Positions 10,801-63,245 of a DNA stretch of 64,000 bases are shown in pieces. Location: positions 12,338,001 through 12,402,000 of the forward strand of contig OZ024756.1 in the NCBI GenBank assembly GCA_964016885.1, given 5' to 3'. Below the pieces are notes generated by a model. It was given only the letters and a program-made list of their open reading frames with translations. It made no database searches and was not told the origin of the DNA. Position numbers and translations under genes: made by a program. This stretch comes from Eledone cirrhosa (taxonomy: Eukaryota). Position 1 is the first letter of the stretch; each line of letters starts with the position of its first letter.

Positions 10801-13152
10801 ATCTCATTTGGTCATTCCATGAGAGTATCTTAGTCAGTATGAGCTTTCAACTGACCCTTGTATGTCTGAGAATCTCATTTGGTCATTCCATGAGAGTATC
10901 TTAGTCAGTATGAGCTTTCAACTGACCCTTGTATGTCTGAGAATCTCATTTGGTCATTCCATGAGAGTATCTTAGTCAGCCTATGATGAGCTTTCAACTG
11001 ACCCTTGTATGTCTGAGAATCTCATTTGGTCATTCCATGAGAGTATCTTAGTCAGTATGAGCTTTCAACTGACCCTTGTATGTCTGAGAATCTCATTTGG
11101 TCATTCCATGAGAGTATCTTAGTCAGCCTATGATGAGCTTTCAACTGACCCTTGTATGTCTGAGAATCTCATTTGGTCATTCCATGAGAGTATCTTAGTC
11201 AGCCTATGATGAGCTTTCAACTGACCCTTGTGTCTGAGAAATAGGCAAAAATATAAACCCTGTTTGGGTAAATGAAAAAAAAAGAATATAAAAAAGAAAG
11301 TTAGTGATTATTGTCTATACTTACTGTTTGATGTTTACATGCTCTCGTTCAGCTATCAACTTCTTATTAAAGTCTTGTATACAATCTTGGAGAGTGTTTA
11401 TTAACTGCTTATCTTGTTCCTGCTGTCTTTTCATCTCCTTAGTGAGACGAAGGTTGGCATCATCAAGCCGCTGACATCTAATGGAAATAAACAACAACAA
11501 TGACAACAATCATTAATTTTCGTTTACACAGGTACAACTTTACCTGTTCTTTCACTTCTTTAACCCTTTAGCATTTAAACCAGCCATATCTGGCCAGAAT
11601 TCTCTCACCACTTTCTGTTCAAACTGACTGTAACCGGTCACTCATACTGATGTTAAGGTATTGTTCTCAAAATAAATAACATCAAAATCTCGTAGATTTG
11701 ATATTATGTGATTATATTGATATTATGCCTTTACTGTGAAGATATAATAGTATCATCATCATCATGTCATTTTACGTCCGCTTTTCCCTGCCTGCAAGGG
11801 TGGGACGGGAACTGATTCTGGATATATTTCTACAGCTGGATGCCCTTCCTAACACCAACCTCATTTACAGTGAGTGCTGGGTGCTTTTTTGCTGTGGTAA
11901 CTCCACGACCACTTTGCAGTGGAATGATAGGGACCCCAGTCCCTATCATCTCATTTCTACAGCTGAATAAACTGGAGCAATGTGAAATAAAGTGTCTTGC
12001 TCAAGGAAAAAACATCACCCGGTCTGAGAATTGAACTCACAACCTTTCGATTGCAAGGCCAATGTTCTAACCACTAAGCCATGTGCCTCCATTGGTATAT
12101 ATAGTATATATAGAACAATGTGAATGCTAAAGGGTTAAATATATGAGGAAGGCGGCAAATTAACAGAGTCTTTAGAATATCAGATAGAATGTTTTGCACT
12201 ATTTGTTCTGGCTCTCTCTGCAATATGAGTTCAAATTCTGCTGAAGTCAACTTTGCTTTTCATCCTTTTGAGGTTGATAAAATGAAGTACCAGTACAGTA
12301 CTGGGGTTGTTTCTTCCTTTATATCTCTTCCTCACTTCCTCTCTCTCACTCTCCTTTTCTGTCTGGAAGAAGTCTTTAGGGATTAGAGAATTGGATTCAC
12401 AATTGTGTGGTTGTGAGAGACCAGGCGATGCATTATGTCCTCAAGCAAGACACTTTATTTCACATTGCTCTTTCTGCCAGGAGTTGCGACCAGTAGATAG
12501 TATCAGCAGTGGAAAGACCAATGGAAACATTGTTTCCTTGGTCCGATTTGATGAGTTCCACCCCACTCGGTTAAGCAAATGCAGAGAAAACAACTCAATC
12601 AACACCAGTATTTTACAGGTACTTAATTAAACAGAAATTGCCAAACAAAAGGTCAGAAGAAATCTTCAGTTGTGCCATAGGCAAACTCCCTAATGTTGCT
12701 GATCTAAATGATAAACACACCCAGTACACTCTGTAAAGTGGTTGCTTATGAGAAAGGCATACAGCCACAGAAAATCTGTATGTATATTTTCTTTCATATT
12801 ATTTGCTCTATATATGTGCACAAAATACTGTTTATCAAACATAATATACGTGAACGGCAAAGCATAAATGAATTGAGAGAGAGACTGAGCATAGGAGGAA
12901 TCAAATGCTGTGTGTAGGAGAGGCGGTTGCGTTGGTATGGACAAGTGATGCGTATGAAGGATGACAGTTGCATAAAAACGTGCAGAGCACTAGAAGTCGA
13001 TGGAATCCACGGAGTGGGGAGACCCAGGAAGACCTGGGATGAGGTGAGAAAAGCCGACCATACCCAATTACACCTCTCAAAGGCGTAATTGGGTATGGTC
13101 CGTAAAGCTTGTAAGCCCAACACTAACCTCTAAGACATGCACCTTCACGTGT

Positions 13153-39600: not shown

Positions 39601-42600
39601 AGTGTAGGTTGATGGTTGGTTTGCTAGGAGGGTTTAGATATATGAGTGTGATTTAACTTTTCTTTCAGTGTTGGTTAAATGAGGTTGAATATCGGAGTAG
39701 AGTTTATGTTGCTTGGGTTTACGGTTGACTTTGCTTTAACCCTTTAGCATTTAAACCAGCCATATCTGACCAGAATTCTCTCACCTCTTTCTGTTCAAAC
39801 TAACCATAACCAGCTGCTCATACTTATGTTAAGATATTGTTCTCAAAATAAATAATATCAAAATCTTGTAGGTTCGATATTATGTGAGATAATTATGTGA
39901 AATAAAGTGTTTTACAATGAAAATATACTAGTAAATATAGAGTAATGTAAATACTAGAAGGTTAATCTTAATGTATTTATGTTCAAGTTAAGGCAATTGA
40001 TGGTCATAGTTGCATATATACTCATGTATAAGTTACATCAACAGATAAGTCACCCTCCATTTTACAGAAAGACATTTATAATGTACCACATATTTTGAAC
40101 TGGGGTTTTGTATGTCAAGTAGAAAAGTTACCATTTTATATTCATTTATAATGTACCACTGTTTTCATAGCTTGGGCTCTGGCTGGGAATGGTGGATTAC
40201 AATTACTCCTGCGCACATGTTCCAAATGAATTTGTTGAGCAAATTACAAACGAGATCAAAATTCAGTGGATATCAATCTAAATCCTGATTATTATTATAT
40301 AGCGGTGGATTGGCAGTATTGGTAGAGGGTCGGACACCATGCTTTGACACAGAGTTACGGCCCTGGCCATTCTCAGTTCAAATCCCGCCGAGGTTGACTT
40401 TGCCTTTCATCCTTACGGGGGTCGATAAAATAAAGTACCAGTAATACACTGGGGTAATAGCTGGCCTTGTGCCAAAAGTAGAAACAGTTATTATATATTA
40501 TAAGGCGGTGGATTGGCAGTAACATTAAAGCATCGGACACCATGCTTCACAGCACAGGGTTATGGCCCTGTACATTCTGAGGTCAAATCCCGCCAAGGTT
40601 AGCTTTGCCTTTCATCCTTACGGGGTTGATAAAGTAAAGTACCAGTAATACACTGGGGTAATTATTATTATATATTATTATGCTTTGAAGCATAGAGTTA
40701 CGGCCCTTGCCATTCTGAGTTCAAATTCCGTCGAGGTTAACTTTGCCTTTCGTCTTTACAGGGTTGATAAAATAAAGTACCAGTAATGCACTGGGTATTT
40801 GCTGGCCTTGTGCCAAAAGTAGAAGCAATTTTATATTATTATTAAGGGCGGTGGATTGGCAGTATCGGTAGAGGGTCGGACACCATGCTTCACAGCATAG
40901 AGTTACGGCCCTTTCCATTCTGAGTTCAAATCCCGGCGAGGTTAACTTTGCCTTTCATCCTTACGGGGGTCGATAAAATAAAGTACCAGTAATACACTGG
41001 GGTAATTGCTGGCCTTGTGCCAAAAGTAGAAACAATTAATGCATGTGGAGAGATGCTGTGCTGAATAGGACCCGGCCAACCCTTGCAAGCTGGGAAAAGC
41101 GGACGGAAAATGATGATGTGGCAATCCAACATTTTTTAAATGCCACCACAGCCATATCAGTATGAAAATAACAGGTGATAATGATTACTACCACCAGCAC
41201 CACAACCACTACTACATCAGAGTCAATAAAGGAAGGTGTACTGACCTCATCAAAGTTGTCATCCCACTGTTCAGATGTTACAACAAAGTCCACTTTCCCA
41301 TTCATATAGTCTTCAAGTTCACTGAAAACAACAAAAAACAACATTAAGGCCTCTGTGATAATACTTCAACCCTAGTACCTTGTCCACCCTATCAGTTGCT
41401 AGTTTCAGGGTCACATTAACCCTAGTACCTTGTCCACCCTATCAGTTGCTAGTTTCAGGGTCACATTAACCCTAGTACCTTGTCCACCCTATCAGTTGCT
41501 AGTTTCAGGGTCACATTAACCCTAGTACCTTGTCCACCCTATCAGTTGCTAGTTTCAGGGTCACATTAACCCTAGTACCTGGTCCACTCTATCAGTTGCT
41601 AGTTTCAGGGTCACATTAACCCTAGTACCTTGTCCACTCTATCAGTTGCTAGTTTCAGGGTCACATTAACCCTAGTACCTTGTCCACCCTATCAGTTGCT
41701 AGTTTCAGGGTCACATTAACCCTAGTACCTTGTCCACCCTATCAGTTGCTAGTTTCAGGGTCACATTAACCCTAGTACCTTGTCCACCCTATCAGTTGCT
41801 AGTTTCAGGGTCACATTAACCCTAGTACCTGGTCCACTCTATCAGTTGCTAGTTTCAGGGTCACATTAACCCTAGTACCTTGTCCACTCTATCAGTTGCT
41901 AGTTTCAGGGTCACATTAACCCTAGTACCTTGTCCACTCTATCAGTTGCTAGTTTCAGGGTCACATTAACCCTAGTGCCTTGTCCACCCTATCAGTTGCT
42001 AGTTTCAGGGTCACATTAACCCTAGTACCTTGTCCACTCTATCAGTTGCTAGTTTCAGGGTCACATTAACCCTAGTACCTTGTCCACCCTATCAGTTGCT
42101 AGTTTCAGGGTCACATTAACCCTAGTACCTTGTCCATCCTATCAGTTGCTAGTTTCAGGGTCACATTAACCCTAGTACCTTGTCCATCCTATCAGTTGCT
42201 AGTTTCAGGGTCACATTAACCCTAGTACCTTGTCCACCCTATCAGTTGCTAGTTTCAGGGTCACATTAACCCTAGTACCTTGTCCATCCTATCAGTTGCT
42301 AGTTTCAGGGTCACATTAACCCTAGTACCTTGTCCATCCTATCAGTTGCTAGTTTCAGGGTCACATTAACCCTAGTACCTTGTCCATCCTATCAGTTGCT
42401 AGTTTCAGGGTCACATTAACCCTAGTACCTTGTCCATTCTATCAGTTGCTAGTTTCAGGGTCACATTAACCCTAGTACCTTGTCCACTCTATCAGTTGCT
42501 AGTTTCAGGGTCACATTAACCCTAGTACCTTGTCCATTCTATCAGTTGCTAGTTTCAGGGTCACATTAACCCTAGTACCTTGTCCATCCTATCAGTTGCT

Positions 42601-45600
42601 AGTTTCAGGGTCACATTAACCCTAGTGCCTTGTCCACTCTATCAGTTGCTAGTTTCAGGGTCACATTAACCCTAGTACCTTGTCCACTCTATCAGTTGCT
42701 AGTTTCAGGGTCACATTAACCCTAGTACCTTGTCCACTCTATCAGTTGCTAGTTTCAGGGTCACATTAACCCTAGTACCTTGTCCATTCTATCAGTTGCT
42801 AGTTTCAGGGTCACATTAACCCTAGTACCTTGTCCATTCTATCAGTTGCTAGTTTCAGGGTCACATTAACCCTAGTACCTTGTCCACCCTATCAGTTGCT
42901 AGTTTCAGGGTCACATTAACCCTAGTACCTTGTCCACCCTATCAGTTGCTAGTTTCAGGGTCACATTAACCCTAGTACCTTGTCCATTCTATCAGTTGCT
43001 AGTTTCAGGGTCACATTAACCCTAGTACCTTGTCCATCCTATCAGTTGCTAGTTTCAGGGTCACATTAACCCTAGTGCCTTGTCCACTCTATTAGTTGCT
43101 AGTTTCAGGGTCACATTAACCCTAGTACCTTGTCCACTCTATCAGTTGCTAGTTTCAGGGTCACATTAACCCTAGTACCTTGTCCACTCTATCAGTTGCT
43201 AGTTTCAGGGTCACATTAACCCTAGTGCCTTGTCCACTCTATCAGTTGCTAGTTTCAGGGTCACATTAACCCTAGTACCTTGTCCACTCTATCAGTTGCT
43301 AGTTTCAGGGTCACATTAACCCTAGTGCCTTGTCCACTCTATCAGTTGCTAGTTTCAGGGTCACATTAACCCTAGTACCTTGTCCACTCTATCAGTTGCT
43401 AGTTTCAGGGTCACATTAACCCTAGTACCTTGTCCACTCTATCAGTTGCTAGTTTCAGGGTCACATTAACCCTAGTACCTTGTCCATTCTATCAGTTGCT
43501 AGTTTCAGGGTCACATTAACCCTAGTACCTTGTTCATCCTATCAGTTGCTAGTTTCAGGGTCACATTAACCCTAGTACCTTGTCCACTCTATCAGTTGCT
43601 AGTTTCAGGGTCACATTAACCCTAGTACCTTGTCCACTCTATCAGTTGCTAGTTTCAGGGTCACATTAACCCTAGTACCTTGTCCACCCTATCAGTTGCT
43701 AGTTTCAGGGTCACATTAACCCTAGTACCTTGTCCATTCTATCAGTTGCTAGTTTCAGGGTCACATTAACCCTAGTACCTTGTCCACCCTATCAGTTGCT
43801 AGTTTCAGGGTCACATTAACCCTAGTACCTTGTCCACCCTATCAGTTGCTAGTTTCAGGGTCACATTAACCCTAGTACCTTGTCCATTCTATAAGTTGCT
43901 AGTTTCAGGGTCACATTAACCCTAGTACCTTGTCCATCCTATCAGTTGCTAGTTTCAGGGTCACATTAACCCTAGTGCCTTGTCCACTCTATTAGTTGCT
44001 AGTTTCAGGGTCACATTAACCCTAGTACCTTGTCCACTCTATCAGTTGCTAGTTTCAGGGTCACATTAACCCTAGTACCTTGTCCACTCTATCAGTTGCT
44101 AGTTTCAGGGTCACATTAACCCTAGTGCCTTGTCCACTCTATCAGTTGCTAGTTTCAGGGTCACATTAACCCTAGTACCTTGTCCACTCTATCAGTTGCT
44201 AGTTTCAGGGTCACATTAACCCTAGTGCCTTGTCCACTCTATCAGTTGCTAGTTTCAGGGTCACATTAACCCTAGTACCTTGTCCACTCTATCAGTTGCT
44301 AGTTTCAGGGTCACATTAACCCTAGTACCTTGTCCACTCTATCAGTTGCTAGTTTCAGGGTCACATTAACCCTAGTACCTTGTCCACTCTATCAGTTGCT
44401 AGTTTCAGGGTCACATTAACCCTAGTACCTTGTCCATTCTATCAGTTGCTAGTTTCAGGGTCACATTAACCCTAGTACCTTGTCCATCCTATCAGTTGCT
44501 AGTTTCAGGGTCACATTAACCCTAGTACCTTGTCCATTCTATCAGTTGCTAGTTTCAGGGTCACATTAACCCTAGTACCTTGTCCATTCTATCAGTTGCT
44601 AGTTTCAGGGTCACATTAACCCTAGTACCTTGTCCACTCTATTAGTTGCTAGTTTCAGGGTCACATTAACCCTAGTACCTTGTCCACTCTATCAGTTGCT
44701 AGTTTCAGGGTCACATTAACCCTAGTACCTTGTCCATTCTATCAGTTGCTAGTTTCAGGGTCACATTAACCCTAGTACCTTGTCCACTCTATCAGTTGCT
44801 AGTTTCAGGGTCACATTAACCCTAGTACCTTGTCCATTCTATCAGTTGCTAGTTTCAGGGTCACATTAACCCTAGTACCTTGTCCATTCTATCAGTTGCT
44901 AGTTTCAGGGTCACATTAACCCTAGAACCTTGTCCATTCTATCAGTTGCTAGTTTCAGGGTCACATTAACCCTAGTACCTTGTCCATCCTATCAGTTGCT
45001 AGTTTCAGGGTCACATTAACCCTAGTACCTTGTCCACCCTATCAGTTGCTAGTTTCAGGGTCACATTAACCCTAGTACCTTGTCCATCCTATCAGTTGCT
45101 AGTTTCAGGGTCACATTAACCCTAGTACCTTGTCCACCCTATCAGTTGCTAGTTTCAGGGTCACATTAACCCTAGTACCTGGTCCACTCTATCAGTTGCT
45201 AGTTTCAGGGTCACATTAACCCTAGTACCTTGTCCACTCTATCAGTTGCTAGTTTCAGGGTCACATTAACCCTAGTACCTTGTCCACTCTATCAGTTGCT
45301 AGTTTCAGGGTCACATTAACCCTAGTGCCTTGTCCACCCTATCAGTTGCTAGTTTCAGGGTCACATTAACCCTAGTACCTTGTCCACTCTATCAGTTGCT
45401 AGTTTCAGGGTCACATTAACCCTAGTACCTTGTCCACCCTATCAGTTGCTAGTTTCAGGGTCACATTAACCCTAGTACCTTGTCCATCCTATCAGTTGCT
45501 AGTTTCAGGGTCACATTAACCCTAGTACCTTGTCCATCCTATCAGTTGCTAGTTTCAGGGTCACATTAACCCTAGTACCTTGTCCACCCTATCAGTTGCT

Positions 45601-48600
45601 AGTTTCAGGGTCACATTAACCCTAGTACCTTGTCCATCCTATCAGTTGCTAGTTTCAGGGTCACATTAACCCTAGTACCTTGTCCATCCTATCAGTTGCT
45701 AGTTTCAGGGTCACATTAACCCTAGTACCTTGTCCATCCTATCAGTTGCTAGTTTCAGGGTCACATTAACCCTAGTACCTTGTCCATTCTATCAGTTGCT
45801 AGTTTCAGGGTCACATTAACCCTAGTACCTTGTCCACTCTATCAGTTGCTAGTTTCAGGGTCACATTAACCCTAGTACCTTGTCCATTCTATCAGTTGCT
45901 AGTTTCAGGGTCACATTAACCCTAGTACCTTGTCCATCCTATCAGTTGCTAGTTTCAGGGTCACATTAACCCTAGTGCCTTGTCCACTCTATCAGTTGCT
46001 AGTTTCAGGGTCACATTAACCCTAGTACCTTGTCCACTCTATCAGTTGCTAGTTTCAGGGTCACATTAACCCTAGTACCTTGTCCACTCTATCAGTTGCT
46101 AGTTTCAGGGTCACATTAACCCTAGTACCTTGTCCATTCTATCAGTTGCTAGTTTCAGGGTCACATTAACCCTAGTACCTTGTCCATTCTATCAGTTGCT
46201 AGTTTCAGGGTCACATTAACCCTAGTACCTTGTCCACCCTATCAGTTGCTAGTTTCAGGGTCACATTAACCCTAGTACCTTGTCCACCCTATCAGTTGCT
46301 AGTTTCAGGGTCACATTAACCCTAGTACCTTGTCCATTCTATCAGTTGCTAGTTTCAGGGTCACATTAACCCTAGTACCTTGTCCATCCTATCAGTTGCT
46401 AGTTTCAGGGTCACATTAACCCTAGTGCCTTGTCCACTCTATTAGTTGCTAGTTTCAGGGTCACATTAACCCTAGTACCTTGTCCACTCTATCAGTTGCT
46501 AGTTTCAGGGTCACATTAACCCTAGTACCTTGTCCACTCTATCAGTTGCTAGTTTCAGGGTCACATTAACCCTAGTGCCTTGTCCACTCTATCAGTTGCT
46601 AGTTTCAGGGTCACATTAACCCTAGTACCTTGTCCACTCTATCAGTTGCTAGTTTCAGGGTCACATTAACCCTAGTGCCTTGTCCACTCTATCAGTTGCT
46701 AGTTTCAGGGTCACATTAACCCTAGTACCTTGTCCACTCTATCAGTTGCTAGTTTCAGGGTCACATTAACCCTAGTACCTTGTCCACTCTATCAGTTGCT
46801 AGTTTCAGGGTCACATTAACCCTAGTACCTTGTCCATTCTATCAGTTGCTAGTTTCAGGGTCACATTAACCCTAGTACCTTGTTCATCCTATCAGTTGCT
46901 AGTTTCAGGGTCACATTAACCCTAGTACCTTGTCCACTCTATCAGTTGCTAGTTTCAGGGTCACATTAACCCTAGTACCTTGTCCACTCTATCAGTTGCT
47001 AGTTTCAGGGTCACATTAACCCTAGTACCTTGTCCACCCTATCAGTTGCTAGTTTCAGGGTCACATTAACCCTAGTACCTTGTCCATTCTATCAGTTGCT
47101 AGTTTCAGGGTCACATTAACCCTAGTACCTTGTCCACCCTATCAGTTGCTAGTTTCAGGGTCACATTAACCCTAGTACCTTGTCCACCCTATCAGTTGCT
47201 AGTTTCAGGGTCACATTAACCCTAGTACCTTGTCCATTCTATAAGTTGCTAGTTTCAGGGTCACATTAACCCTAGTACCTTGTCCATCCTATCAGTTGCT
47301 AGTTTCAGGGTCACATTAACCCTAGTGCCTTGTCCACTCTATTAGTTGCTAGTTTCAGGGTCACATTAACCCTAGTACCTTGTCCACTCTATCAGTTGCT
47401 AGTTTCAGGGTCACATTAACCCTAGTACCTTGTCCACTCTATCAGTTGCTAGTTTCAGGGTCACATTAACCCTAGTGCCTTGTCCACTCTATCAGTTGCT
47501 AGTTTCAGGGTCACATTAACCCTAGTACCTTGTCCACTCTATCAGTTGCTAGTTTCAGGGTCACATTAACCCTAGTGCCTTGTCCACTCTATCAGTTGCT
47601 AGTTTCAGGGTCACATTAACCCTAGTACCTTGTCCACTCTATCAGTTGCTAGTTTCAGGGTCACATTAACCCTAGTACCTTGTCCACTCTATCAGTTGCT
47701 AGTTTCAGGGTCACATTAACCCTAGTACCTTGTCCACTCTATCAGTTGCTAGTTTCAGGGTCACATTAACCCTAGTACCTTGTCCATTCTATCAGTTGCT
47801 AGTTTCAGGGTCACATTAACCCTAGTACCTTGTCCATCCTATCAGTTGCTAGTTTCAGGGTCACATTAACCCTAGTACCTTGTCCATTCTATCAGTTGCT
47901 AGTTTCAGGGTCACATTAACCCTAGTACCTTGTCCATTCTATCAGTTGCTAGTTTCAGGGTCACATTAACCCTAGTACCTTGTCCACTCTATTAGTTGCT
48001 AGTTTCAGGGTCACATTAACCCTAGTACCTTGTCCACTCTATCAGTTGCTAGTTTCAGGGTCACATTAACCCTAGTACCTTGTCCATTCTATCAGTTGCT
48101 AGTTTCAGGGTCACATTAACCCTAGTACCTTGTCCACTCTATCAGTTGCTAGTTTCAGGGTCACATTAACCCTAGTACCTTGTCCATTCTATCAGTTGCT
48201 AGTTTCAGGGTCACATTAACCCTAGTACCTTGTCCATTCTATCAGTTGCTAGTTTCAGGGTCACATTAACCCTAGAACCTTGTCCATTCTATCAGTTGCT
48301 AGTTTCAGGGTCACATTAACCCTAGTACCTTGTCCATCCTATCAGTTGCTAGTTTCAGGGTCACATTAACCCTAGTACCTTGTCCACCCTATCAGTTGCT
48401 AGTTTCAGGGTCACATTAACCCTAGTACCTTGTCCATCCTATCAGTTGCTAGTTTCAGGGTCACATTAACCCTAGTACCTTGTCCACTCTATCAGTTGCT
48501 AGTTTCAGGGTCACATTAACCCTAGTACCTTGTCCACTCTATCAGTTGCTAGTTTCAGGGTCACATTAACCCTAGTACCTTGTCCACCCTATCAGTTGCT

Positions 48601-51423
48601 AGTTTCAGGGTCACATTAACCCTAGTACCTTGTCCACTCTATCAGTTGCTAGTTTCAGGGTCACATTAACCCTAGTACCTTGTCCATTCTATCAGTTGCT
48701 AGTTTCAGGGTCACATTAACTCTAGTACCTTGTCCATTCTATCAGTTGCTAGTTTCAGGGTCACATTAACCCTAGTACCTGGTCCATTCTATCAGTTGCT
48801 AGTTTCAGGGTCACATTAACCCTAGTACCTGGTCCATTCTATCAGTTGCTAGTTTCAGGGTCACATCAACCCTAGTACCTTGTCCACTCTATCAGTTGCT
48901 AGTTTCAGGGTCACATTAACCCTAGTACCTTGTCCACCCTATCAGTTGCTAGTTTCAGGGTCACATTAACCCTAGTACCTTGTCCATCCTATCAGTTGCT
49001 AGTTTCAGGGTCACATTAACCCTAGTACCTTGTCCATCCTATCAGTTGCTAGTTTCAGGGTCACATTAACCCTAGTACCTTGTCCACCCTATCAGTTGCT
49101 AGTTTCAGGGTCACATTAACCCTAGTGCCTTGTCCACTCTATCAGTTGCTAGTTTCAGGGTCACATTAACCCTAGTACCTTGTCCATCCTATCAGTTGCT
49201 AGTTTCAGGGTCACATTAACCCTAGTACCTTGTCCACCCTATCAGTTGCTAGTTTCAGGGTCACATTAACCCTAGTACCTTGTCCACCCTATCAGTTGCT
49301 AGTTTCAGGGTCACATTAACCCTAGTACCTTGTCCACTCTATCAGTTGCTAGTTTCAGGGTCACATTAACCCTAGTACCTTGTCCACTCTATCAGTTGCT
49401 AGTTTCAGGGTCACATTAACCCTAGTACCTTGTCCACCCTATCAGTTGCTAGTTTCAGGGTCACATTAACCCTAGTACCTTGTCCACTCTATCAGTTGCT
49501 AGTTTAAGGGTCACATTAACCCTAGTACCTTGTCCATTCTATCAGTTGCTAGTTTCAGGGTCACATTAACTCTAGTACCTTGTCCATTCTATCAGTTGCT
49601 AGTTTCAGGGTCACATTAACCCTAGTACCTGGGCCATTCTATCAGTTGCTAGTTTCAGGGTCACATTAACCCTAGTACCTGGTCCATTCTATCAGTTGCT
49701 AGTTTCAGGGTCACATCAACCCTAGTACCTTGTCCACTCTATCAGTTGCTAGTTTCAGGGTCACATTAACCCTAGTACCTTGTCCACCCTATCAGTTGCT
49801 AGTTTCAGGGTCACATTAACCCTAGTACCTTGTCCATCCTATCAGTTGCTAGTTTTAGGGTCACATTAACCCTAGTACCTTGTCCATCCTATCAGTTGCT
49901 AGTTTCAGGGTCACATTAACCCTAGTACCTTGTCCACCCTATCAGTTGCTAGTTTCAGGGTCACATTAACCCTAGTTCCTTGTCCACTCTATCAGTTGCT
50001 AGTTTCAGGGTCACATTAACCCTAGTACCTTGTCCATCCTATCAGTTGCTAGTTTCAGGGTCACATTAACCCTAGTACCTTGTCCACCCTATCAGTTGCT
50101 AGTTTCAGGGTCACATTAACCCTAGTACCTTGTCCACCCTATCAGTTGCTAGTTTCAGGGTCACATTAACCCTAGTACCTTGTCCATTCTATCAGTTGCT
50201 AGTTTCAGGGTCACATTAACCCTAGTACCTTGTCCACTCTATCAGTTGCTAGTTTCAGGGTCACATTAACCCTAGTACCTTGTCCACTCTATCAGTTGCT
50301 AGTTTCAGGGTCACATTAACCCTAGTACCTTGTCCACCCTATCAGTTGCTAGTTTCAGGGTCACATTAACCCTAGTACCTTGTCCACTCTATCAGTTGCT
50401 AGTTTCAGGGTCACATTAACCCTAGTACCTGGTCCACTCTATCAGTTGCTAGTTTCAGGGTCACATTAACCCTAGTACCTTGTCCACTCTATCAGTTGCT
50501 AGTTTCAGGGTCACATTAACCCTAGTACCTGGTCCACTCTATCAGTTGCTAGTTTCAGGGTCACATTAACCCTAGTACCTGGTCCACTCTATCAGTTGCT
50601 AGTTTCAGGGTCACATTAACCCTAGTACCTTGTCCATCCTATCAGTTGCTAGTTTCAGGGTCACATTAACCCTAGTACCTTGTCCATCCTATCAGTTGCT
50701 AGTTTCAGGGTCACATTAACCCTAGTACCTTGTCCACTCTATCAGTTGCTAGTTTCAGGGTCACATTAACCCTAGTACCTTGTCCACTCTATTAGTTGCT
50801 AGTTTTACGGTGATGATAAGAAGCACCCAGTCCACACTGTAATGAGGGTAGAACTAGGAAGGGCAACCAGCCATAGAAACCAATCCAGAAACAATTTCAT
50901 ATGAGCAAGACACAGTCCCCAGAATCTGATTTGTCTCACAATATGACAACCCGTCTAAGCTATGCAAATGTGGAAAAATTGACATATGATGATGATGATG
51001 ATATATACATCATCATCATCATCATCATTTTATGTCCGCTTTTCCCTGCTTGCAAGGGAGGGACAGGAACTGATATATATATGTGTATATATATATAATT
51101 TGATTTTAGGTTTAATCAATACATATAAAATATGATATCATCATCATCATCACCGTTTTACGTCTGTTCTTCCATGCTAGCATGAGTTAGACGGGTTGTC
51201 CTGTTATGGGCAGTGTACGGTTGGCTGACCTCGTCTTGCTCATACGGGAACTGATTCTGGCTTGATTTCTACAGCTGGATGCCCTTCCTAACACCAACCT
51301 CATTTACAGTGAGTGCTGGGTGCACCATAAGTTGCACAATGCATATGCAAGTGATAAGTGCACCTAGGTATTGTTTAGCAGTGGAACGGGAGATCCTTTC
51401 TTCTGAACTAAACAACACACACA

Positions 51424-51488
<65 letters not shown>

Positions 51489-51915
51489 AGAGGTTATATT
51501 TAATTTGTTGGGATACAACAAGCAAATATTTTTATAATTGATATAAAGCACTCAACAAATTAATGGAGTAAAAATACGATATATTAACAAATGGAAACTA
51601 TATTTATAAAACCATATTTATTTCATTATACATATTTCAAGGACACCAAAGCAAATTATGGTGCCCTTTCATCAGATAAAATATAATATAGATCAGTTTT
51701 ATAAACAAATATTGACATACCCTTAAAGAATGCGACCATGTCGGTTGGAAGCTCCCGGATAGGCATTCTTTAAGGGTATGTCAATATTTGTTTATAAAAC
51801 TGATCTATATTATATTTTATCTGATGAAAGGGCACCATAATTTGCTTTGGTGTCCTTGAAATATGTATAATGAAATAAATATGGTTTTATAAATATAGTT
51901 TCCATTTGTTAATAT

Positions 51916-51960
<45 letters not shown>

Positions 51961-54900
51961 TCATCATCATTTTACGTCCGCTTTTCCCTGCTTGCAAGGG
52001 TGGGACGGGAACTGATTCTGGCTTGATTTCTACAGCTGGATGCCCTTCCTAACACCAACCTCATTTACAGTGAGTGCTGGGTGCTTTTTTTGCCGTGGCA
52101 CCTCCATGACCACTTTGCAGTGGAATGATATGGACCCCAGTCCCTATCATCTCATTTCTACAGCTGAGTAAACTGGAGCAATGTGAAATAAAGTGTCTTG
52201 CTCAAGGAAACAACACATCACCCGGTCTGAGAATTTTTATATAATAATATATATATATAAAAATTAGGATTGGTGCTCTGAAATAGCGATGTATACATGA
52301 ATGTATGTATAGTATATTTGGCAATATGCCGTATGTTTAATTAAAAACATTTAGAAGACCTTGCGCTATTATTTTTAAAGTAGTGACTATGTCACTTACT
52401 TCTTTTGTCTGCAAAGGAAGGGAGAGAAGCTGACACACTGTAATGTGGCCATGTTGGTGTCACGACAAAAAGCACCCAGTACACACTGTAATGTAGTCAT
52501 GTAGATTATCAATATATTGTGTAATACCTTCGACAGGTGTGTTTCCAATATAGTCTTAGGTCAGAAGATCCTAACCTTTGTGTGGCTGAGGTAAAGTGAC
52601 TGTCTGAAATCCAGGAAAAAGAGTAAATGAGTAAGTAAGTAGTGTAGAGTCATTAACTCACCCATTATATGCAATGATGTATCGAATTAGCTCGTGTCGC
52701 TCTATTTCATTGAAGTTTCCATAGAGAAAGAAGTGTTTATCCGACAGGAAGTTTGGCAGGACAGGTAACTCTGATTCGGAGGAATCACTATCGCTGTTTT
52801 CATCAACATCTGTGGCAGCACCAAAAGCCTCATCATCATGCCCTTTATCTTTGTCATCATCATCATCATCATCATCATTGTCCACACTACTGTCAATTTG
52901 CTGGGTGTCTGCTGTGCGAAGGAGTTTAGATGTCGATGGACCAGCATCAGATAAAACGGACAATTCTGACCGTTTTTTCCCTGCAGTTTTGATTCTATAA
53001 AATAAACATTAAAAAAAGGTCAATTTCTTTTTAACCCTTTACCATTTACATTACTCTATATTTACTATTGTATTTTCATGGTAAAGTCTTTACCTCACAT
53101 AGCATTTACATTACTCTATATATACTATTGTATTTCCACAGTAAAGGTTTTACCTCACATAATACCTCACATAGCATTTACATTACTCTATATATACTAT
53201 TGTATTTCCACAGTAAAGGTTTTACCTCACATAATATCTCACATAACATTTACATTACTCTATATATACTATTGTATTTCCACAGTAAAGGTTTTACCTC
53301 ACATAATATCTCACATAACATTTACATTACTCTATATATACTATTGTATTTCCACAGTAAAGGTTTTACCTCACATAATATCTCACATAACATTTACATT
53401 ACTCTATATATACTATTGTATTTCCACAGTAAAGGTTTTACCTCACATAATATCTTACATAATATTTACATTACTCTATATATACTATTGTATTTCCACA
53501 GTAAAGGTTTTACCTCACATAATATCTCACATAACATTTACATTACTCTATATATACTATTGTATTTTCACAGTAAAGGTTTTACCTCACATAATATCTT
53601 ACATAATATTTACATTACTCTATATATACTATTGTATTTTCACAGTAAAGGCTTTACCTCACATAATATCTCACATAACATTTACATTACTCTATATATA
53701 CTATTGTATTTTCACAGTAAAGGCTTTACCTCACATAATATCTTACATAATATTTACATTACTCTATATATACTATTGTATTTTCACAGTAAAGGCTTTA
53801 CCTCACATAATATTTACATTACTCTATATTTACTATTGTATTTTCACACATATATATGTCATCATAATAAATACACACACATACACATATATATATGTCA
53901 TCATCATAGTAAATACACACACACACACAAATATGTTATCATAATAAATACACACACACATATATATGTCGTCATCATAATAAATACACACACACAAACA
54001 TATATATGTCATCCTCATAGTAAATACACACACACATGTCATCATAATAAATACACACACATATGTCATCATCATAAATACACACACACACACACATATA
54101 TCATCATAACACACACACACACATCATCATAACACACACACATATATATCATCATCATAACACACACACACACATATCATCATAACACACACACGCACAT
54201 ATATCATCAAAACACACACACACACACACACATCAAAACACACACACACACACACACCATCATCATCATATACATACACACACACACATATCATCATAAC
54301 ACACACACATTTATATCATCATAACACACACACACACACATATATATCATCATAACACACACACACATATATCATCATAACACACACACACACATCATCA
54401 TAACACACACACATATATATCATCATCATAACACACACACACACATATCATCATAACACACACACGCACATATATCATCAAAACACACACACACACACAC
54501 ATCAAAACACACACACACACACACCATCATCATCATATACATACACACACACACATATATCATCATAACACACACACATTTATATCATCATAACACACAC
54601 ACACACACATATATATCATCATAACACACACACACATATATCATCATCATCATAATCACCATTTAATGTCAATTTTTCCAAGCTAGCATGGCTTGGACGA
54701 GTTGTCCTATTATGAGCGAAATCAGATCAGACAACAAAGAAACACACAGTTCACACAGTAATGTGGCCGTGTGGGTAACACGGTAAAAACCTCCCAGTCC
54801 ACGCTGTAATGTGGCCGTGTATGTAACACTGTAAAAACCTCCCAGTCCACACAGTAATGTGGCCCTGTGGGTAACACGGTAAAAAGTTCCCAGTCCACGC

Positions 54901-57900
54901 TGTAATGTGGCAGTGTGGGTAACACGGTAAAAACCTCCCAGTCCATACTGTAATGTGGCTGTGTATGTAACACGGTAAAAACCTCCCAGTCCACGCTGTA
55001 ATGTGGCCGTGTATGTAACACGGTAAAAAGTTCCCAGTCCACGCTGTAATGTGGCCGTGTGGGTAACACGGTAAAAACCTCCCAGTCCACACTGTAATGT
55101 GGCCGTGTAGGTAACATGGTAAAAACCTCCCAGTCCACACTGTAATGTGGCCGTGTAGGTAACACGGTAAAAACCTCCCAGTCCACACTGTAATGTGGCC
55201 GTGTAGGTAACACGATAAAAACCTCCCAGTCCACACTGTAATGTGGCCGTGTAGGTAACACGGTAAAGATCTCCCAGTCGACACTGTAATGTGGCTGTAT
55301 ATGTAACACGGTAAAAACCTCGCAGTCCACACTGTAATGTGGTCGTGTATGTAACACGGTAAAAACCTCCCAGTCCACGCTGTAATGTGGCCGTGTAGGT
55401 AACACGGTAAAAACCTCACAGTCCACACTGTAATGTGGCCGTGTAGGTAACACGGTAAAGATCTCCCAGTCCACACTGTAATGTGGCTGTGTATGTAACA
55501 CGGTAAAAACCTCCCAGTCGACACTGTTATGTGGCCGTGTGGGTAACACGGTAAAAAGTTCCCAGTCCACACAGTAATGTGGCCGTGTGGGTAACACGGT
55601 AAAAAGTTCCCAGTCCACACAGTAATGTGGCCATGTGGGTAACACGGTAAAAAGTTCCCAATCCACACAGTAATGTGGCCGTGTGGGTAACACGGTAAAA
55701 ACATCCCAGTCCACACAGTAATGTGGCCCTGTGGGTAACACGGTAAAAAGTTCCCAGTCCACACAGTAATGTGGCCCTGTGGGTAACACGGTAAAAAGTT
55801 CCCAGTCTACACTGTAATGTGGCCCTGTGGGTAACACGGTAAAGAGTTCCCAGTCCACACAGTAATGTGGCCCTGTGGGTAACACGGTAAAGAGTTCCCA
55901 GTCCACACAGTAATGTGGCCGTGTGGGTAACACGGTAAAAAGTTCCCAGTCCACACTGTAATGTGGCCGTGTGGGTAACACGGTAAAAACCTCCCAGTCC
56001 ACACAGTAATGTGGTCGTGTATGTAACACGGTAAAAACCTCCCAGTCCACACTGTAATGTGGCTGTGTGGGTAACACGGTAAAAACCTCCCAGTCCACGC
56101 TGTAATGTGGCCGTGTGGGTAACACGGTAAAAACCTCCCAGTCCATACTGTAATGTGGCCGTGCGGGTAACACGGTAAAAACCTCCCAGTCCACACTGTA
56201 ATGTGGCTGTGTATGTAACACGGTAAAAACCTCCCAGTCCACGCTGTAATGTGGCCGTGTATGTAACACGGTAAAAAGTTCCCAGTCCACGCTGTAATGT
56301 GGCCGTGTGGGTAACACGGTAAAAACCTCCCAGTCCACACTGTAATGTGGCTGTGTATGTAACACGGTAAAAACCTCGCAGTCCACACTGTAATGTGGCC
56401 GTGTATGTAACACGGTAAAAACCTCCCAGTCCACGCTGTAATGTGGCCGTGTAGGTAACACGGTAAAAACCTCACAGTCCACACTGTAATGTGGCCGTGT
56501 AGGTAACACGGTAAAGATCTCCCAGTCCACACTGTAATGTGGCTGTGTATGTAACACGGTAAAAACCTCCCAGTCGACACTGTTATGTGGCCGTGTGGGT
56601 AACACGGTAAAAGGTTCCCAGTCCACACAGTAATGTGGCCGTGTGGGTAACATGGTAAAAAGTTCCCAGTCCACACAGTAATGTGGCCGTGTGGGTAACA
56701 CGGTAAAAAGTTCCCAGTCCACACAGTAATGTGGCCGTGTGGGTAACACGGTAAAAACATCCCAGTCCACACAGTAATGTGGCCCTGTGGGTAACACGGT
56801 AAAAAGTTCCCAGTCCACACAGTAATGTGGCCCTGTGGGTAACATGGTAAAAAGTTCCCAGTCCACACTGTAATGTGGCCCTGTGGGTAACACGGTAAAG
56901 AGTTCCCAGTCCACACAGTAATGTGGCCCTGTGGGTAACACGGTAAAGAGTTCCCAGTCCACACAGTAATGTGGCCGTGTGGGTAACACGGTAAAAAGTT
57001 CCCAGTCCACACTGTAATGTGGCCGTGTGGGTAACACGGTAAAAACCTCCCAGTCCACACAGTAATGTGGTCGTGTATGTAACACGGTAAAAACCTCCCA
57101 GTCCACACTGTAATGTGGCTGTGTGGGTAACATGGTAAAAACCTCCCAGTCCACGCTGTAATGTGGCCGTGTGGGTAACACGGTAAAAACCTCCCAGTCC
57201 ATACTGTAATGTGGCCGTGCGGGTAACACGGTAAAAACCTCCCAGTCCACACTGTAATGTGGCTGTGTATGTAACACGGTAAAAACCTCCCAGTCCACGC
57301 TGTAATGTGGCCGTGTATGTAACACGGTAAAAAGTTCCCAGTCCACGCTGTAATGTGGCCGTGTGGGTAACACGGTAAAAACCTCCCAGTCCACACTGTA
57401 ATGTGGCCGTGTAGGTAACATGGTAAAAACCTCCCAGTCCACACTGTAATGTGGCCGTGTAGGTAACACGGTAAAAACCTCCCAGTCCACAGTGTAATGT
57501 GGCCGTGTAGGTAACACAATAAAAACCTCCCAGTCCACACTGTAATGTGGCCGTGTAGGTAACACGGTAAAGATCTCCCAGTCCACACTGTAATGTGGCT
57601 GTGTATGTAACACGGTAAAAACCTCGCAGTCCACACTGTAATGTGGCCGTGTATGTAACACGGTAAAAACCTCCCAGTCCACGCTGTAATGTGGCCGTGT
57701 AGGTAACACGGTAAAAACCTCACAGTCCACACTGTAATGTGGCCGTGTAGGTAACACGGTAAAGATCTCCCAGTCCACACTGTAATGTGGCTGTGTATGT
57801 AACACGGTAAAAACCTCCCAGTCGACACTGTTATGTGGCCGTGTGGGTAACACGGTAAAAAGTTCCCAGTCCACACAGTAATGTGGCCGTGTGGGTAACA

Positions 57901-58758
57901 CGGTAAAAAGTTTCCAGTCCACACAGTAATGTGGCCGTGTGGGTAACACGGTAAAAACATCCCAGTCCACACAGTAATGTGGCCGTGTGGGTAACACGGT
58001 AAAAAGTTCCCAGTCCACACAGTAATGTGGCCCTGTGGGTAACACGGTAAAAAGTTCCCAGTCCACACAGTAATGTGGCCCTGTGGGTAACACGGTAAAG
58101 AGTTCCCAGTCCACACAGTAATGTAGCCGTGTGGGTAACACGGTAAAAAGTTCCCAGTCCACACTGTAATGTGGCCGTGTGGGTAACACGGTAAAAACCT
58201 CCCAGTCCACGCTGTAATGTGGCTGTGTGGGTAACACGGTAAAAACCTCCCAGTCCACACTGTAATGTGGCCATGTAGGTAACACGGTAAAAACCTCCCA
58301 GTCCACACTGTAATGTGGCCGTATAGGTAACACGGTAAAGATCTCCCAGTCCACACTGTAATGTGGCCGTGTGGGTAACACGGTAAAAACCTCCCAGTCC
58401 ACACAGTAATGTGGCCGTGTAGGTAACACAGTAAAAAGTTCCCAGTCAACGCTGTAATGTGGCCGTGTGGGTAACACGGTAAAAACCTCCCAGTCCACAC
58501 TGTAATGTGGCTGTGTGGGTAACACGGTAAAAACCTCCCAGTCCACGCTGTAATGAGGCCGTGCAGGTAACACTGTAAAAAGTTCCCAGTCAACACTGTA
58601 AACGTGGTTGGTGTTAGGAAGGGCATCCAGCCGTAGAAAACCTGCCAGATAGTCCTATATGAGCGAGACATGGTCACCCAACCAACCTTGCCTCAAGTGG
58701 GACAACGCCCGTCTAACCCATGCTAGCGTGGAAGATAGACGGTAACCGATGATGATGA

Positions 58759-58789
<31 letters not shown>

Positions 58790-61434
58790 ATGATGATGGA
58801 TCAGGTTATGAAAGTGGCAGAAAGGATATTAGCACAACTAATTAGAGAAAGGATCAAACTAGATGAGATGCAGTTTGGTTTTGTGCCTGGGAAGAGTACA
58901 ACAGATGCCCTCTTCTTGGTGAGACAATTGCAAGAGAGGTTCTTAGAGAAAAATAAGCCACTATACTTAGCCTTTGTTGACCTAGAGAAGGCCTTTGATA
59001 GGGTACCCCGATCTGTCATGTGGTGGTCTCTAAGGAAGCTAGGTGTTGAGGAATGGCTTGTAAGGACAATGCAAACTTTGTACAGAGGTTCTCTCAGTAA
59101 AGTCAGGGTAGGAATGGAGTTTAGTGAGGAATTCCAGATACAAGTAGGAGTACATCAAGGTTCGGTCCTCAGCCCGCTCTTGTTCATTATAGTCCTCCAA
59201 GCCATAACAGAGGAGTTTAAGACTGGCTGTCCATGGGAACTTCTCTATGCTGACGATCTGGCTCTTATAGCAGAATCAGTAAAGGAGCTAGAGAATAATT
59301 TCTGGCTTCCTCTGCTGACGACGAAGGGTTTTTCCCTGCGTACGAAAGGCCGGTTGTACGATGCCTGTGTGAGGAGCGCGATGCTGCATGGTAGTGAGAC
59401 ATGGGCAGCAACTGCAGAGGATATGCTAGAGAGAAATGAGGCAAGCATGAATGTGTTGAGAGAGAAACTGTATCTGAGAGGGATAGAATGTAGTGTACGG
59501 GAGAGGAGACTGAGATGGTATGGACATGTGATGCGCATGGAGGATGACCGATGGGTGAAGAAGTGCCATGAAATGCCAGTTGAAGGAAGACGTGGTAGAG
59601 GTAGAGCACGAAAAACATGGACGGAGGTGGTGAGAACAGACCTCAGATCGTTGAGGCTCACGGTGGAGATGACGAAGGACCGTGACAAGTGGAGAGATGC
59701 TGTGCTGAATAAGACCCGTCCCACCCTTGCGAGCAGGGAAGAGCGGACGTAAAATGATGATGACCATGTCTTGCTCAACACAACTACTTTTGTTGGCGTC
59801 AGTATGTCCTTCCAACCACATCTAGTGTGGACTGTGTGGCTTACTATACAGCATCCAGCCCACCCCCTTCCCCACCACCATCAGTTACCTTCTCACTTCA
59901 TCGTCAGTGTCTTCTTCAGAAAGTCTAACATCTCCTTCTTCATCAGATTCTGGCTCTGAAATGAAATGAAAATGAAATGAAAAAGAAATGTTAATGAAAT
60001 GTTACAGCTCACACTTATGTAGGTTTAGCTAGCCTCATATGAGGTTTCTTGGCTGTTTTAGCCCTTTACCATTTACATTACTCTTTATATACTATTGTAT
60101 TTTCATGGTAAAGGCTTTACCTCACATAATATTGAATCTACGAGATTTTGATATTATCTATTTTGAGAACAATACCTTAACATAAGTATGAGCAGCCGGT
60201 TACAGCCTGTTTGGACAGAAAACGATAAGAGAATTCTGGCCATATATGGCTGATTTAAATGTTAAAGGAAGGATTAATGACAGAGGACCAAGTTCCCTCA
60301 TGTTGTTTATACAGCTCACACCAATGTAGGTTTAGCTGGCCTCCTACAAAGTATCTCATAGGAGGTTTCTTGGTTGTTTTAATGATAGGAGCCTGGTCCT
60401 ATCATGTTGTTTATACAGCTCACACCAATGTAGGTTTAGCTGGCCTCCTACAAAGTATCTCATAGGAGGTTTCTTGGATGTTTTAATGATAGGAGCCTGG
60501 TCCTATCATGTTGTTTATACAGCTCACACCTATGTAGGTATAGCTGGCCTCATATAAGGTTTCTTGGGCATTTTAATAATATGTCTCAGTCCTATAATGT
60601 TGTATCTCAGATTTCTTGGATGTTTTAAAGATAGGGAGCCCAGTCCTGTCATGAAAAATGTGAAATGAAGCACTCACATGACCTCACCACCTCCCACTCA
60701 CATGGCCTCACCACCTCCCACTCACACGACCTCACCACCTCCCACTCACACGACCTCACCACCTCCCACTCACTCACATGACCTCACCACCTCCCACTCA
60801 CATGGCCTCACCACCTCCCACTCACACGACCTCACCACCTCCCACTCACTCACATGACCTCACCACCTCCCACTCACATGGCCTCACCACCTCCCACTCA
60901 CACGACCTCACCACCTCCTATTCACACTCACATTCACAAAATGTTACCATGTCCTACTCACACTCACATTCACAAAATGTTACCATGTCCTACTCACACT
61001 CACAAGACCTCACCACCTCCTGCTCACACTCACATTCACAAAATGTTACCATGTCCCACTCTCACTCACAAGACCATCTTCACTCACCCTCCATGGATGG
61101 CAAGTATTCAGGATCACTTTTCCTCTTCAGCAACCGCAGCTCTTCTGAATGTCCCTTCTTCTTCTCCTCCTCCTCCAATGGCTGTGTCTGGTCTTCCTCC
61201 TCCCCCTCCTCTATTGGCTGTGTCTGGTCTTCCTCCTCCCCCTCCTCTATTGGCTGTGTCTGGTCTTCCTCCTCCCCCTCCTCTATTGGCTGTGTCTGGT
61301 CTCCCTCATCTTCCTCCTCCACTGGCTGTGTTTGCTGCTCCTCTTTTTTCTTCTTTTTCACACGCTCTTTGCCTTTCTTCTCATCATCATCATCATCATC
61401 ATCCTCATCCATTGGTTTCTCCTCCAGTTGATAT
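36552..61434 (-). CDS. XRCC1: DNA repair protein XRCC1, 3' part (5 exons; 5' exons beyond the right edge)
   Basis: Exons 61434-61088, 59955-59889, 52994-52662, 41321-41246, 36668-36552 join in frame via GT-AG. They encode 'EEDTDDEVRR' (cf. XRCC1 GDTEDELRR) and BRCT2 'ELPVLPNFLSDKHFFLYGNFNEIERHELIRYIIAYNG-ELEDYMNGKVDFVVTSEQWDDNFDE-ALSNYPQLTFVHPKWLYSCHLKNKWVPYQLHIVTP'. Confidence 0.95.
36760..37880 (+). mobile_element. RTE LINE 3' half (decayed) with C4HC3 finger and (GAT)n tail
   Basis: GIHQGLVLSPLLF, CPWELLY, RLRWYGHV, TRPTLASREKRT*. Confidence 0.9.
38010..39436. repeat. 45-bp minisatellite (about 32 copies)
   Basis: Unit translates as MLKDVLEDDTGRPAT; intronic. Confidence 0.95.
39740..39961. 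mobile_element. piggyBac-type MITE copy
   Basis: TTAA TSD; same body as 5160-5445. Confidence 0.78.
40300..41037 (+). mobile_element. Head-to-tail cluster of about 4 SINE family B copies
   Basis: GGCGGTGGATTGGCAGTA heads near 40300, 40504 and 40847; B boxes; ATT tails. Confidence 0.82.
41246..41321 (-). CDS. XRCC1: XRCC1 BRCT2 exon
   Basis: ttcag|T GAA CTT GAA GAC TAT ATG ... GAT GAG|gtcagt; 76 nt. Confidence 0.95.
41368..50805. repeat. 50-bp minisatellite, about 9.4 kb and about 189 copies
   Basis: Unit cctagtaccttgtccaYYctatcagttgctagtttcagggtcacattaac. Confidence 0.98.
51619..51683 (-). ncRNA. Mirror copy of the hammerhead ribozyme motif
   Basis: Exact reverse complement of 51813-51877 in the left arm of the palindrome. 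Confidence 0.75.
51813..51877 (+). ncRNA. Minimal type I hammerhead ribozyme motif (Penelope-pLTR-like)
   Basis: Stem I tattttat/atgaaata; CTGATGA; stem II aagggcacca/tggtgtcctt; GAAA; near-palindromic stem III tatgta; predicted AUA cleavage after 51869; AATAAA at 51874. Confidence 0.75.
51958..52234 (-). mobile_element. SINE family A, 5'-truncated
   Basis: Matches the other copies; lacks the A box. Confidence 0.85.
52662..52994 (-). CDS. XRCC1: XRCC1 exon: CK2/FHA-binding linker and start of BRCT2
   Basis: tag|A ATC AAA ... AAT GG|gtgagt; FGAATDVDENSDSD and ELPVLPNFLSDKHFFLYG. Confidence 0.95.
53035..53848. repeat. About 69-bp tandem array from the subterminal part of the TTAA MITE
   Basis: Begins ttaa|ccctttaccatttac; the same unit is amplified at 17540-17883. 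Confidence 0.9.
54742..58600. repeat. 48-bp minisatellite (about 80 copies) inside a retroelement 3' segment
   Basis: Unit cacactgtaatgtggccgtgtgggtaacacggtaaaaacctcccagtc; followed by the LINE/SINE tail to about 58760. Confidence 0.96.
58797..59763 (+). mobile_element. RTE LINE fragment with internal deletions
   Basis: RT motifs with YADD; lacks the finger region; (GAT)n tail. Confidence 0.92.
59889..59955 (-). CDS. XRCC1: XRCC1 exon (EPESDEEGDVRLSEEDTDDEVRR)
   Basis: tttcag|AG CCA ... AGA AG|gtaact; 67 nt; conserved DT[DE]DE.RR motif. Confidence 0.9.
60298..60605. repeat. About 103-bp tandem repeat, about 3 copies
   Basis: tcatgttgtttatacagctcacacc...gtccta. Confidence 0.85.
60672..61086. 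repeat. 24-bp cactcacatgacctcaccacctcc repeats
   Basis: Directly after an XRCC1 donor site. Confidence 0.88.
61088..61434 (-). CDS. XRCC1: XRCC1 exon: end of BRCT1 plus acidic linker with QTQP repeats
   Basis: cag|A TAT CAA CTG ... ATG GAG G|gtgagt; 347 nt; phase matches the next exon. Confidence 0.85.
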
Positions 61435-62019: not shown

Positions 62020-63245
62020 CGAGGTGTGTCAGAAAAGTTCCAGGACTGATGTCACAAAAGATTTATTTCAAACCCAAACTTCACACTAAGAGTTTTCTCA
62101 TTCAAAGTAATCCCCCTGGAGTATGTAACTGTAATCTTAGCTCTCTGCAGCGATCAAACTTTTTTCTTCATAATTTTATATATAAATGGAGGCACATGGC
62201 TTAGTGGTTAGGGCATTGTGCTTGCAATCGAAAGGTTGTGAGTTCAATTCTCAGACCGGGTGATGTGTTGTTTCCTTGAGCAAGACACTTTATTTACTCA
62301 GCTGTAGAAATGAGATGATAGAGACTGGGGTCCATATCATTCCACTACAAAGTGGTCGTGAAGGCGCCATGGCAAAAAAGCACCCAGCACTCACTGTAAA
62401 TGAGGTTGGTGTTAGGAAGGGCATCCAGCTGTAGAAATCAAGCCAGAATCAGTTCCCGTCCCACCCTTGCAAGCAGGGAAAAAGCGGGCGTAAAATGAAA
62501 TGATGATGATGATGATGTCCTCTGTTTCAGGTCGTCAAGCAATGAGCACAGAGCAACGAACAAACTTGAAAACTCCATCAGAAGCACTGGGATTGCTGCA
62601 GCAAGTGTATGGAGATGAGACGATGTCACGCTCACGTGTTTTTGAGTGGTGCAAGAGGTTTAAAGAAGGACGCGAGGACGTGGAAGATCACCCCAGGAGC
62701 AGAAGGCCCTCAACAACCAGGACTGAGGTCAACGTTGAGCGCGTCAGGCAGATGGTGCGTAGCAATCGTCGGCTGACTGTTCAACTGATGGCAAATGAGC
62801 TGGGCATGAATCGGGACAGCGTCTGGAAGATTCTCACTGAAGATTTGGACATGCGGAAAGTCTGCACGAAGATGGTGCCCAAACTGCTGAACGATGACCA
62901 GAAGGGTCGACGCATGCAGGTGTGCCAGGACATCCTCGAGCGTCTTGAAACCGAACCAGAGTTGCTAGGGACAGTCATCACTGGTGATGAAAATGGATCT
63001 TCAAGTACGACCCGAAGGGGACCCGTTTTGAAGACGTGGACGACATCAAAAAGGCCGTGACGACGGAATTGCGGAGGATCCCGGAAGAATCCTTCCAGGA
63101 GTGCATGCAAGCGTGGCAGAAAAGGATGGAAAAGTGCATTAGACTCCAGGGGGATTACTTTGTAGGAGAAAACTCTTAGTGTGAAGTTTGGGTTTGAAAT
63201 AAATCTTTTGTGGCATCAGTCCTGGAACTTTTCTGACACACCTCG
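62020..63245 (+). mobile_element. Mariner element with 103-bp inverted termini, deleted catalytic core and nested SINE
   Basis: TA-flanked; QVYGDETMSRSRVFEWCKRFKEGRE, KMVPKLL, ITGDE then jumps to KGTRFEDVDDIK...KCIRLQGDYF. Confidence 0.9.
62188..62517 (+). mobile_element. SINE family A copy nested in a mariner element
   Basis: Matches the other copies. Confidence 0.88.

Follow-up and report, generated by a model that had tools for sequence, protein, structure and literature searches.

The palindrome and its host intron

The window analysed here, a 64,000-nucleotide stretch of the Eledone cirrhosa genome, carries a near-perfect palindrome of two 160-nt arms (51574-51733 and 51763-51922), which differ at one base and flank a 29-nt centre. 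The minus-strand exons on either side correspond to two adjoining residue ranges, 1-36 and 37-61, of the XRCC1 chain 3pc6_A and join in frame (GT 52661, AG 41322). The palindrome is thus inserted in an XRCC1 intron of about 11.3 kb (41322-52661, minus strand) between two consecutive coding exons. A Pfam search of the XRCC1 exon frames gave no match. The arm comparison and the exon matches together confirm the preliminary description, in which a palindrome of 160-bp arms with one mismatch and a 29-nt spacer was placed in an XRCC1 intron. Most of the same intron is occupied by tandem repeats of a 50-bp unit, in about 189 copies with 97% matches (41368-50805), and other large tandem arrays are present in the window at 54747-58601 (48 bp x 80), 38014-39436 and 8754-11240. 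The window also includes a 337-aa frame with RT-like motifs (YADD) on the minus strand (58739-59752), presumably a LINE remnant, and a plus-strand frame of 188 aa (62494-63060), which we take to resemble the N-terminus of a mariner/Tc1 transposase.

The element to which the palindrome belongs was numbered from 1 to 278 on the minus strand, position 1 being window 51762. In this numbering, the stretch 51485-51762 (minus strand) is very probably a tailed copy of the end repeat (pLTR) of a Hydra-type Penelope-like element, running from the inferred RNA 5' end (position 1) to the distal 3' end (position 278); the pLTRs of ORF-bearing copies match it at 76-98%, and the commonest 5' end in the family falls at positions 1-9. 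This copy is composed of the unpaired centre (51734-51762, minus strand, positions 1-29), the left palindrome arm in XRCC1-sense orientation (51574-51733, minus strand) and an 89-nt tail (51485-51573, minus strand) found on one arm only, which related loci show to be part of the element. Two details of the preliminary description were therefore in error, because the tail intervenes between the left arm and the (TA)n tract that the arm was said to abut, and what was taken for a spacer is really the 5' end of the element in the minus-strand reading. The right arm (51763-51922, plus strand) is an inverted, 5'-truncated pLTR copy without tail, covering positions 30-189. The flanking tracts, (TA)29 on the left (51427-51484) and (TA)n on the right (51923-51958), are likely parts of the target microsatellite.

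Hammerhead motifs in the two arms

Each arm contains a putative minimal type I hammerhead motif, recognised from sequence and folding, at 51619-51683 on the minus, XRCC1-sense strand (predicted cut after 51627) and at 51813-51877 on the plus strand (predicted cut after 51869). The plus-strand motif is arranged in the order stem I (51813-20), CUGAUGA (51821-27), stem II (51828-57), GAAA, UAUGUA-UA and stem I (51870-77), with an 8-bp stem I, a 10-bp stem II in both window hammerheads, and a stem III that is a self-complementary 8-nt palindrome, AUAUGUAU. The core, stems I and II and the self-complementary stem III expected from the preliminary description, which had proposed a minimal type I hammerhead with a short palindromic stem III on each strand, were all found. 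The AAUAAA of the arm overlaps stem I within AT-rich sequence, and nothing was found that points to a function in polyadenylation. Folding of the isolated arm gave z = -3.9, none of 200 shuffles being equally good. The covariance-model check that had been suggested was run against Rfam and left the hammerhead unrecognised, since the 34 matches with E up to 10 included no hammerhead family.

A pairing filter applied to the fetched genomic loci yielded 206 hammerhead motifs of 63 types, from which 21 representatives were chosen for the analysis of covariation; being preselected by pairing, this set gives inflated figures. In the 21 aligned hammerheads the CUGANGA, GAAA and UH core is present and 7 of 22 stem pairs change on both sides, a count inflated by the filter, as is the 92% of paired stem cells compared with 34-55% in slid controls. 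Stem III was self-complementary in 84/84 cells across five different 8-mers, the filter having favoured palindromes. A conserved core with covarying stems was thus seen among genomic homologues, as anticipated, though at a level raised by the preselection. At the fourth pair of stem II, 20 of the 21 have a pyrimidine mismatch, and only the window copy closes it, in both arms (51831 and 51665); the 10-bp stem II is therefore real in the window and atypical of the family. The closed-stem variant was considered as a change private to the window copy, and this was ruled out by eight exact genome matches to the corresponding 32-mer. The mismatch may serve as a tertiary contact. Further hammerhead families were noticed in the flanks of fetched loci (L039:2564-2648, L002:841-921, L091:2466-2542, L159:174-249 and L008:2514-2576), some of them with a different stem III sequence, indicating that the genome holds many such elements.

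The parent element

The hammerhead 33-mer has 943 exact matches in the 3.0-Gb genome, against none for the reversed control. In two cases, matches spaced 9 kb from each other bracket ORFs that are broken but retain motifs of RT and endonuclease. A protein search of the genome gave 150 scored matches from 62,713 candidates, and in all 20 ORF loci fetched from these a sequence resembling the element's pLTR is present within a 9.5-kb stretch. Those protein hits that bear an organism name all come from Argonauta, as is likely for an octopod host. A 743-aa open frame is retained in four of the 20 (L101-L104), with the motifs DKT, RWR, CNCRNKSNC, YVGST, CDLC and CRH; its C-terminal motifs are VVY...YVGST, R, E and N, and a homologue (P0111) is named as a predicted GIY-YIG endonuclease, with no Pfam hit. 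Searches of Pfam with ORF pieces, full ORFs and four homologues gave no relevant match, a PDB sequence search with the ORF gave nothing useful, and a profile search gave weak RT matches (E 0.5). A single-sequence protein model was unusable (pLDDT 35), and the model built from 74 sequences (pLDDT 89) had telomerase TERT as its best PDB match (E 2.8e-9), so that the 743-aa ORF is predicted to fold like telomerase RT.

The pLTRs flank the ORF in both direct and inverted orientation (L062, L085, L097, L103 and L104). The ORF starts about 45 nt beyond the tail, and about 1.4-1.8 kb separate its end from the 3' pLTR. Among the ORF-bearing copies examined, those with the closest pLTR have broken ORFs, whereas the frames that are intact come from a sister subfamily whose pLTRs are 76-87% identical. 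The preliminary description was right to connect the arm with Penelope-like pLTRs, the arm being the pLTR of an ORF-bearing RT-endonuclease element; likewise, the proposed genome search found the arm flanking RT ORFs with a putative GIY-YIG endonuclease, RT being assigned by motifs and by the predicted TERT-like fold.

The Hydra clade of C-terminal EN+ Penelope-like elements is defined by DKT, RWK, a CxCx5C linker and CxxC and CxH around the endonuclease, without CCHH (PMC8557442). The 743-aa frames fit this definition, with RWR for RWK as one conservative change and no CCHH seen by eye, and they share with the clade the single ORF, the hammerhead in the end repeat and the (TA)n target, the last as read by eye in the flanks. 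The Hydra-type assignment fits on the grounds of motifs and by-eye comparison. One octopus family is listed in that source (Craig et al. 2021), Hydra-1_Obim from Octopus bimaculoides. It is a different family, since by eye its protein is homologous but divergent and its hammerhead differs in stems II and III. The tail of about 89 nt is longer than the 30-40 bp quoted for Penelope-like elements.

Anatomy of the genomic copies

For a survey independent of structure, sampling was confined to the first 100 matches out of the 943, which lie on two contigs; merging of close pairs left 88 loci, of which 86 were scored (L051 and L108 being left out), L034/L035 and L045/L046 each representing the two ends of one composite. 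An adjacent inverted arm was detected in 46 of the 86 loci, and the sequence runs on beyond the centre into upstream element sequence in 18, including three that also have an inverted arm. Single arms with neither feature account for 25 loci. Two full outward-facing hammerheads, as in the window, were found in 21.

The 3' ends cluster at two sites, about 184-189 (41 cases) and about 277 (41 cases), with four others. All two-ended insertions (38/38) combine one tailed and one tail-less end, with no tail/tail or tail-less/tail-less combination; under independent choice at even odds this outcome has a probability of 4e-12. In the remaining eight arm pairs one arm reaches neither 3' site. The 5' ends accumulate at one site: 31 of the 86 sampled arms stop over positions 10-110, and 37 of the other 55, which reach position 9, stop at positions 1-9. 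The starts of inverted arms are spread over positions 1 to 245, many of them far downstream (109-245) with little overlap with the partner. The idea of templates cut by the ribozyme found no support, as none of the 46 starts at the predicted cut position 137, the nearest being 131 and 139, though the sample is blind to single arms of that kind. In 12 pairs it is the arm extending further at its 5' end that bears the tail, and in 22 it is the shorter arm, with four ties.

Junctions differ among the copies, and several show short complementary overlaps near positions 5-25. The exact junction of the window occurs three times in the genome, with the tail on the long arm in the window and on the short arm in the other two loci (L002 and L003). 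In an earlier search some 40 nearly identical sites had come up, and at most of them an inverted arm lay alongside; its query included the centre, so that the copies found were biased to similar junctions. The element with a fixed junction at which it hinted was rejected as query bias, junctions being variable in the unbiased set. At one locus (L052 / L091:7129-7692) two head-to-tail 277-nt pLTR units, each beginning at position 1, lie beside an inverted arm; this retrozyme-like tandem could form a hammerhead dimer. A composite insertion (L061:1238-3383, plus strand) contains nested within it a second, more distant Penelope-like ORF.

Variants of partner arms were compared wherever the two arms had 60 or more columns in common, which gave 51 pairs (24 from the unbiased set and 27 from the search that included the centre). 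The partner arm carries the same variant in 46 of 191 calls (24%), compared with a mean of 1.5% and a maximum of 7.1% in 2000 re-pairings; the other 76% are unshared. Divergence is 2.8% within pairs and 3.6% between pairs, a modest gap. This sharing points to one template, one donor or later gene conversion. Position 185, the sole mismatch of the window palindrome (51578 / 51918), is C on the tailed and T on the tail-less arm in seven pairs and the reverse in one, a bias that is not simply explained by one template.

Comparison with known systems

The main features of this layout are already in print: head-to-head pLTRs, one-sided tails, hammerhead pairs on opposite strands and two RT start sites. 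Inverted-pLTR insertions of Penelope-like elements (Arkhipova et al. 2013, PMC3846280; Fig. 2 of PMC8557442) are described there as head-to-head, with unequal 5' ends and one tailed pLTR, as here; in contrast to those insertions, the window locus consists of the two pLTRs alone, without ORF, and the one-tail rule has now been counted. According to Cervera and De la Pena (2014, PMC4209133), minimal hammerheads of Penelope-like elements have the type I core, long helix II and palindromic helix III found here, and dual motifs on opposite strands 100-700 bp apart are reported; the window element differs in its 8-nt stem III palindrome, AUAUGUAU, and this genome's families in the conserved pyrimidine mismatch at the fourth stem II pair. 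PAc, an Anolis Poseidon element (Frangieh et al. 2024, PMC11167929), likewise has two internal 3' ends bounding the tail, an AT-rich target and a hammerhead in the pLTR upstream of both 3' ends, but it belongs to the Poseidon clade and its ORF begins inside the hammerhead instead of beyond the tail. Animal non-LTR retrozymes resemble the window palindrome in being non-coding, derived from Penelope-like elements and provided with a type I hammerhead, but they form tandem head-to-tail arrays, whereas the window locus is a head-to-head pair of two opposed copies only. The E. cirrhosa element is a new family of a known kind, Hydra-type Penelope-like end-pairs, and what is new lies in the mechanistic numbers, namely the 38/38 tail pairing, the 5' stop site and the shared variants (24% against 1.5%).

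Origin of the inverted arrangement

We are strongly inclined to read the palindrome as a head-to-head pLTR pair of a Hydra-type Penelope-like retrotransposon, located between (TA)n runs. For its formation we tentatively propose, with somewhat less than even confidence, an obligatory double priming on one RNA, involving a protein dimer, two nicks, two fixed pLTR sites and run-off at the RNA 5' end. The element protein would nick both strands of a (TA)n run, and each nick would prime reverse transcription on the pLTR part of the element RNA, one start being at the distal site (about 277, tail included) and the other, which leaves out the tail, at the proximal site (about 184-189). Both cDNAs would extend to the RNA 5' end (position 1, as judged from the DNA ends) and then join head to head. 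Since the hammerhead lies between the two start sites, each arm would carry one, facing outward. According to PMC11167929, the Anolis protein nicks and extends both strands and reverse transcription begins at two internal sites bounding the tail. The RT start site is reported there to be the same for both strands, which offers no support for strict coupling in vitro. Also against one simple template are the unshared variants, the bias at position 185 and the trio of loci with the exact junction and tails on opposite sides. In a literature search made mostly without subscription papers, no paper was found stating strict coupling or one-RNA double priming for Penelope-like elements. If true, double priming accounts for both the long-noted head-to-head inversion and the one-sided tail.

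With the identity of the element unchanged, the inverted arm might instead arise when one cDNA, or else an antisense template, snaps back and primes itself, endonuclease resolution then trimming or keeping the tail. Self-priming and endonuclease resolution steps have been proposed in PMC3846280 and PMC8557442, and this route accounts for the variants common to partner arms and for the short complementary overlaps at several junctions. Simple snap-back of one sense cDNA would, however, fix the relation between tail and arm length, which is variable, and the many inverted arms beginning at 109-245 overlap little with their partners; we consider self-priming a genuine contender, if a doubtful one. 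The probability that remains falls to two RNAs of one donor or to gene conversion. A non-autonomous palindromic element, retrozyme- or MITE-like and moving as a fixed hairpin unit, would agree with the outcome of the centre-including search and with the junction common to three loci. That search was biased, however, and the variable starts of inverted arms in the unbiased set, the use of the identical sequence as pLTR in ORF-bearing copies and the definition of animal retrozymes as tandem head-to-tail repeats (bioRxiv 10.64898/2026.07.22.740005) make this quite improbable; the retrozyme-like element with a fixed palindrome, as raised in the preliminary description, is accordingly unsupported. 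An assembly artefact is scarcely conceivable: although no contig from the public sequencing runs examined spans the whole stretch, the two arms are distinguished by one base and by the tail, the layout recurs with different junctions at dozens of loci, and one public run has the element family in 4451 contigs with varied joints, evidence that is not locus-specific.

Relevance to XRCC1

Read-through RNA of the palindrome is predicted to form a hairpin of -261 kcal/mol in which stems I and II have a probability of 0.0, as foreseen from the outward-facing geometry, by which the hairpin was expected to mask the ribozyme in XRCC1 pre-mRNA. The statement that the antisense arm comes first in either transcript is correct for read-through RNA and fails for RNA starting at the inferred 5' end (51762), which lacks that arm and for which stem II is predicted at P = 0.95-0.99 and stem I at 0.04-0.49. 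Both this predicted masking and the location in an XRCC1 intron would suit a selected, self-silencing ribozyme or dsRNA cassette regulating XRCC1. Such a cassette is, however, very unlikely, because the insertion, with arms identical at 159 of 160 positions, looks very recent, an equal layout is present at 21 of the 86 sampled loci, and the window copy has lost the stem II mismatch kept by the others. A self-silenced cassette is also unsupported in view of the arm being the end repeat of an ORF-bearing element that occurs as single arms at 25 of the 86 loci.

Whether XRCC1 needs to be spared from the ribozyme at all is doubtful, given the weakness of minimal hammerheads and the splicing of hammerhead-cut introns in the literature. 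A tested minimal hammerhead of a Penelope-like element showed no cleavage as a monomer and weak cleavage as a dimer (PMC4209133), the Anolis hammerhead required the element protein (PMC11167929), and splicing persisted in introns cut by a hammerhead (work cited in PMC2995048). Short 5'-truncated intronic insertions of such elements are reported to be common in Chlamydomonas (PMC9977147). Masking in XRCC1 pre-mRNA by the 160-bp duplex looks incidental on these predicted structures, the presence of two hammerheads is likely to be a side effect of how the element inserts, not a means of controlling the gene, and the consequence for XRCC1 is probably small.

Significance

The origin of the inverted ends and tails of Penelope-like elements is stated as an open question in PMC8557442 and PMC11167929. 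A young and abundant element family offers countable footprints for retrotransposon biology, such as the pairing of tails, the 5' stop site and the variants shared between arms. If the proportion of 21/86, which comes from two contigs, is extrapolated to some 830 loci, the E. cirrhosa genome may hold very roughly 200 near-perfect hairpins of 150-190 bp, which are potential dsRNA substrates where they are transcribed.
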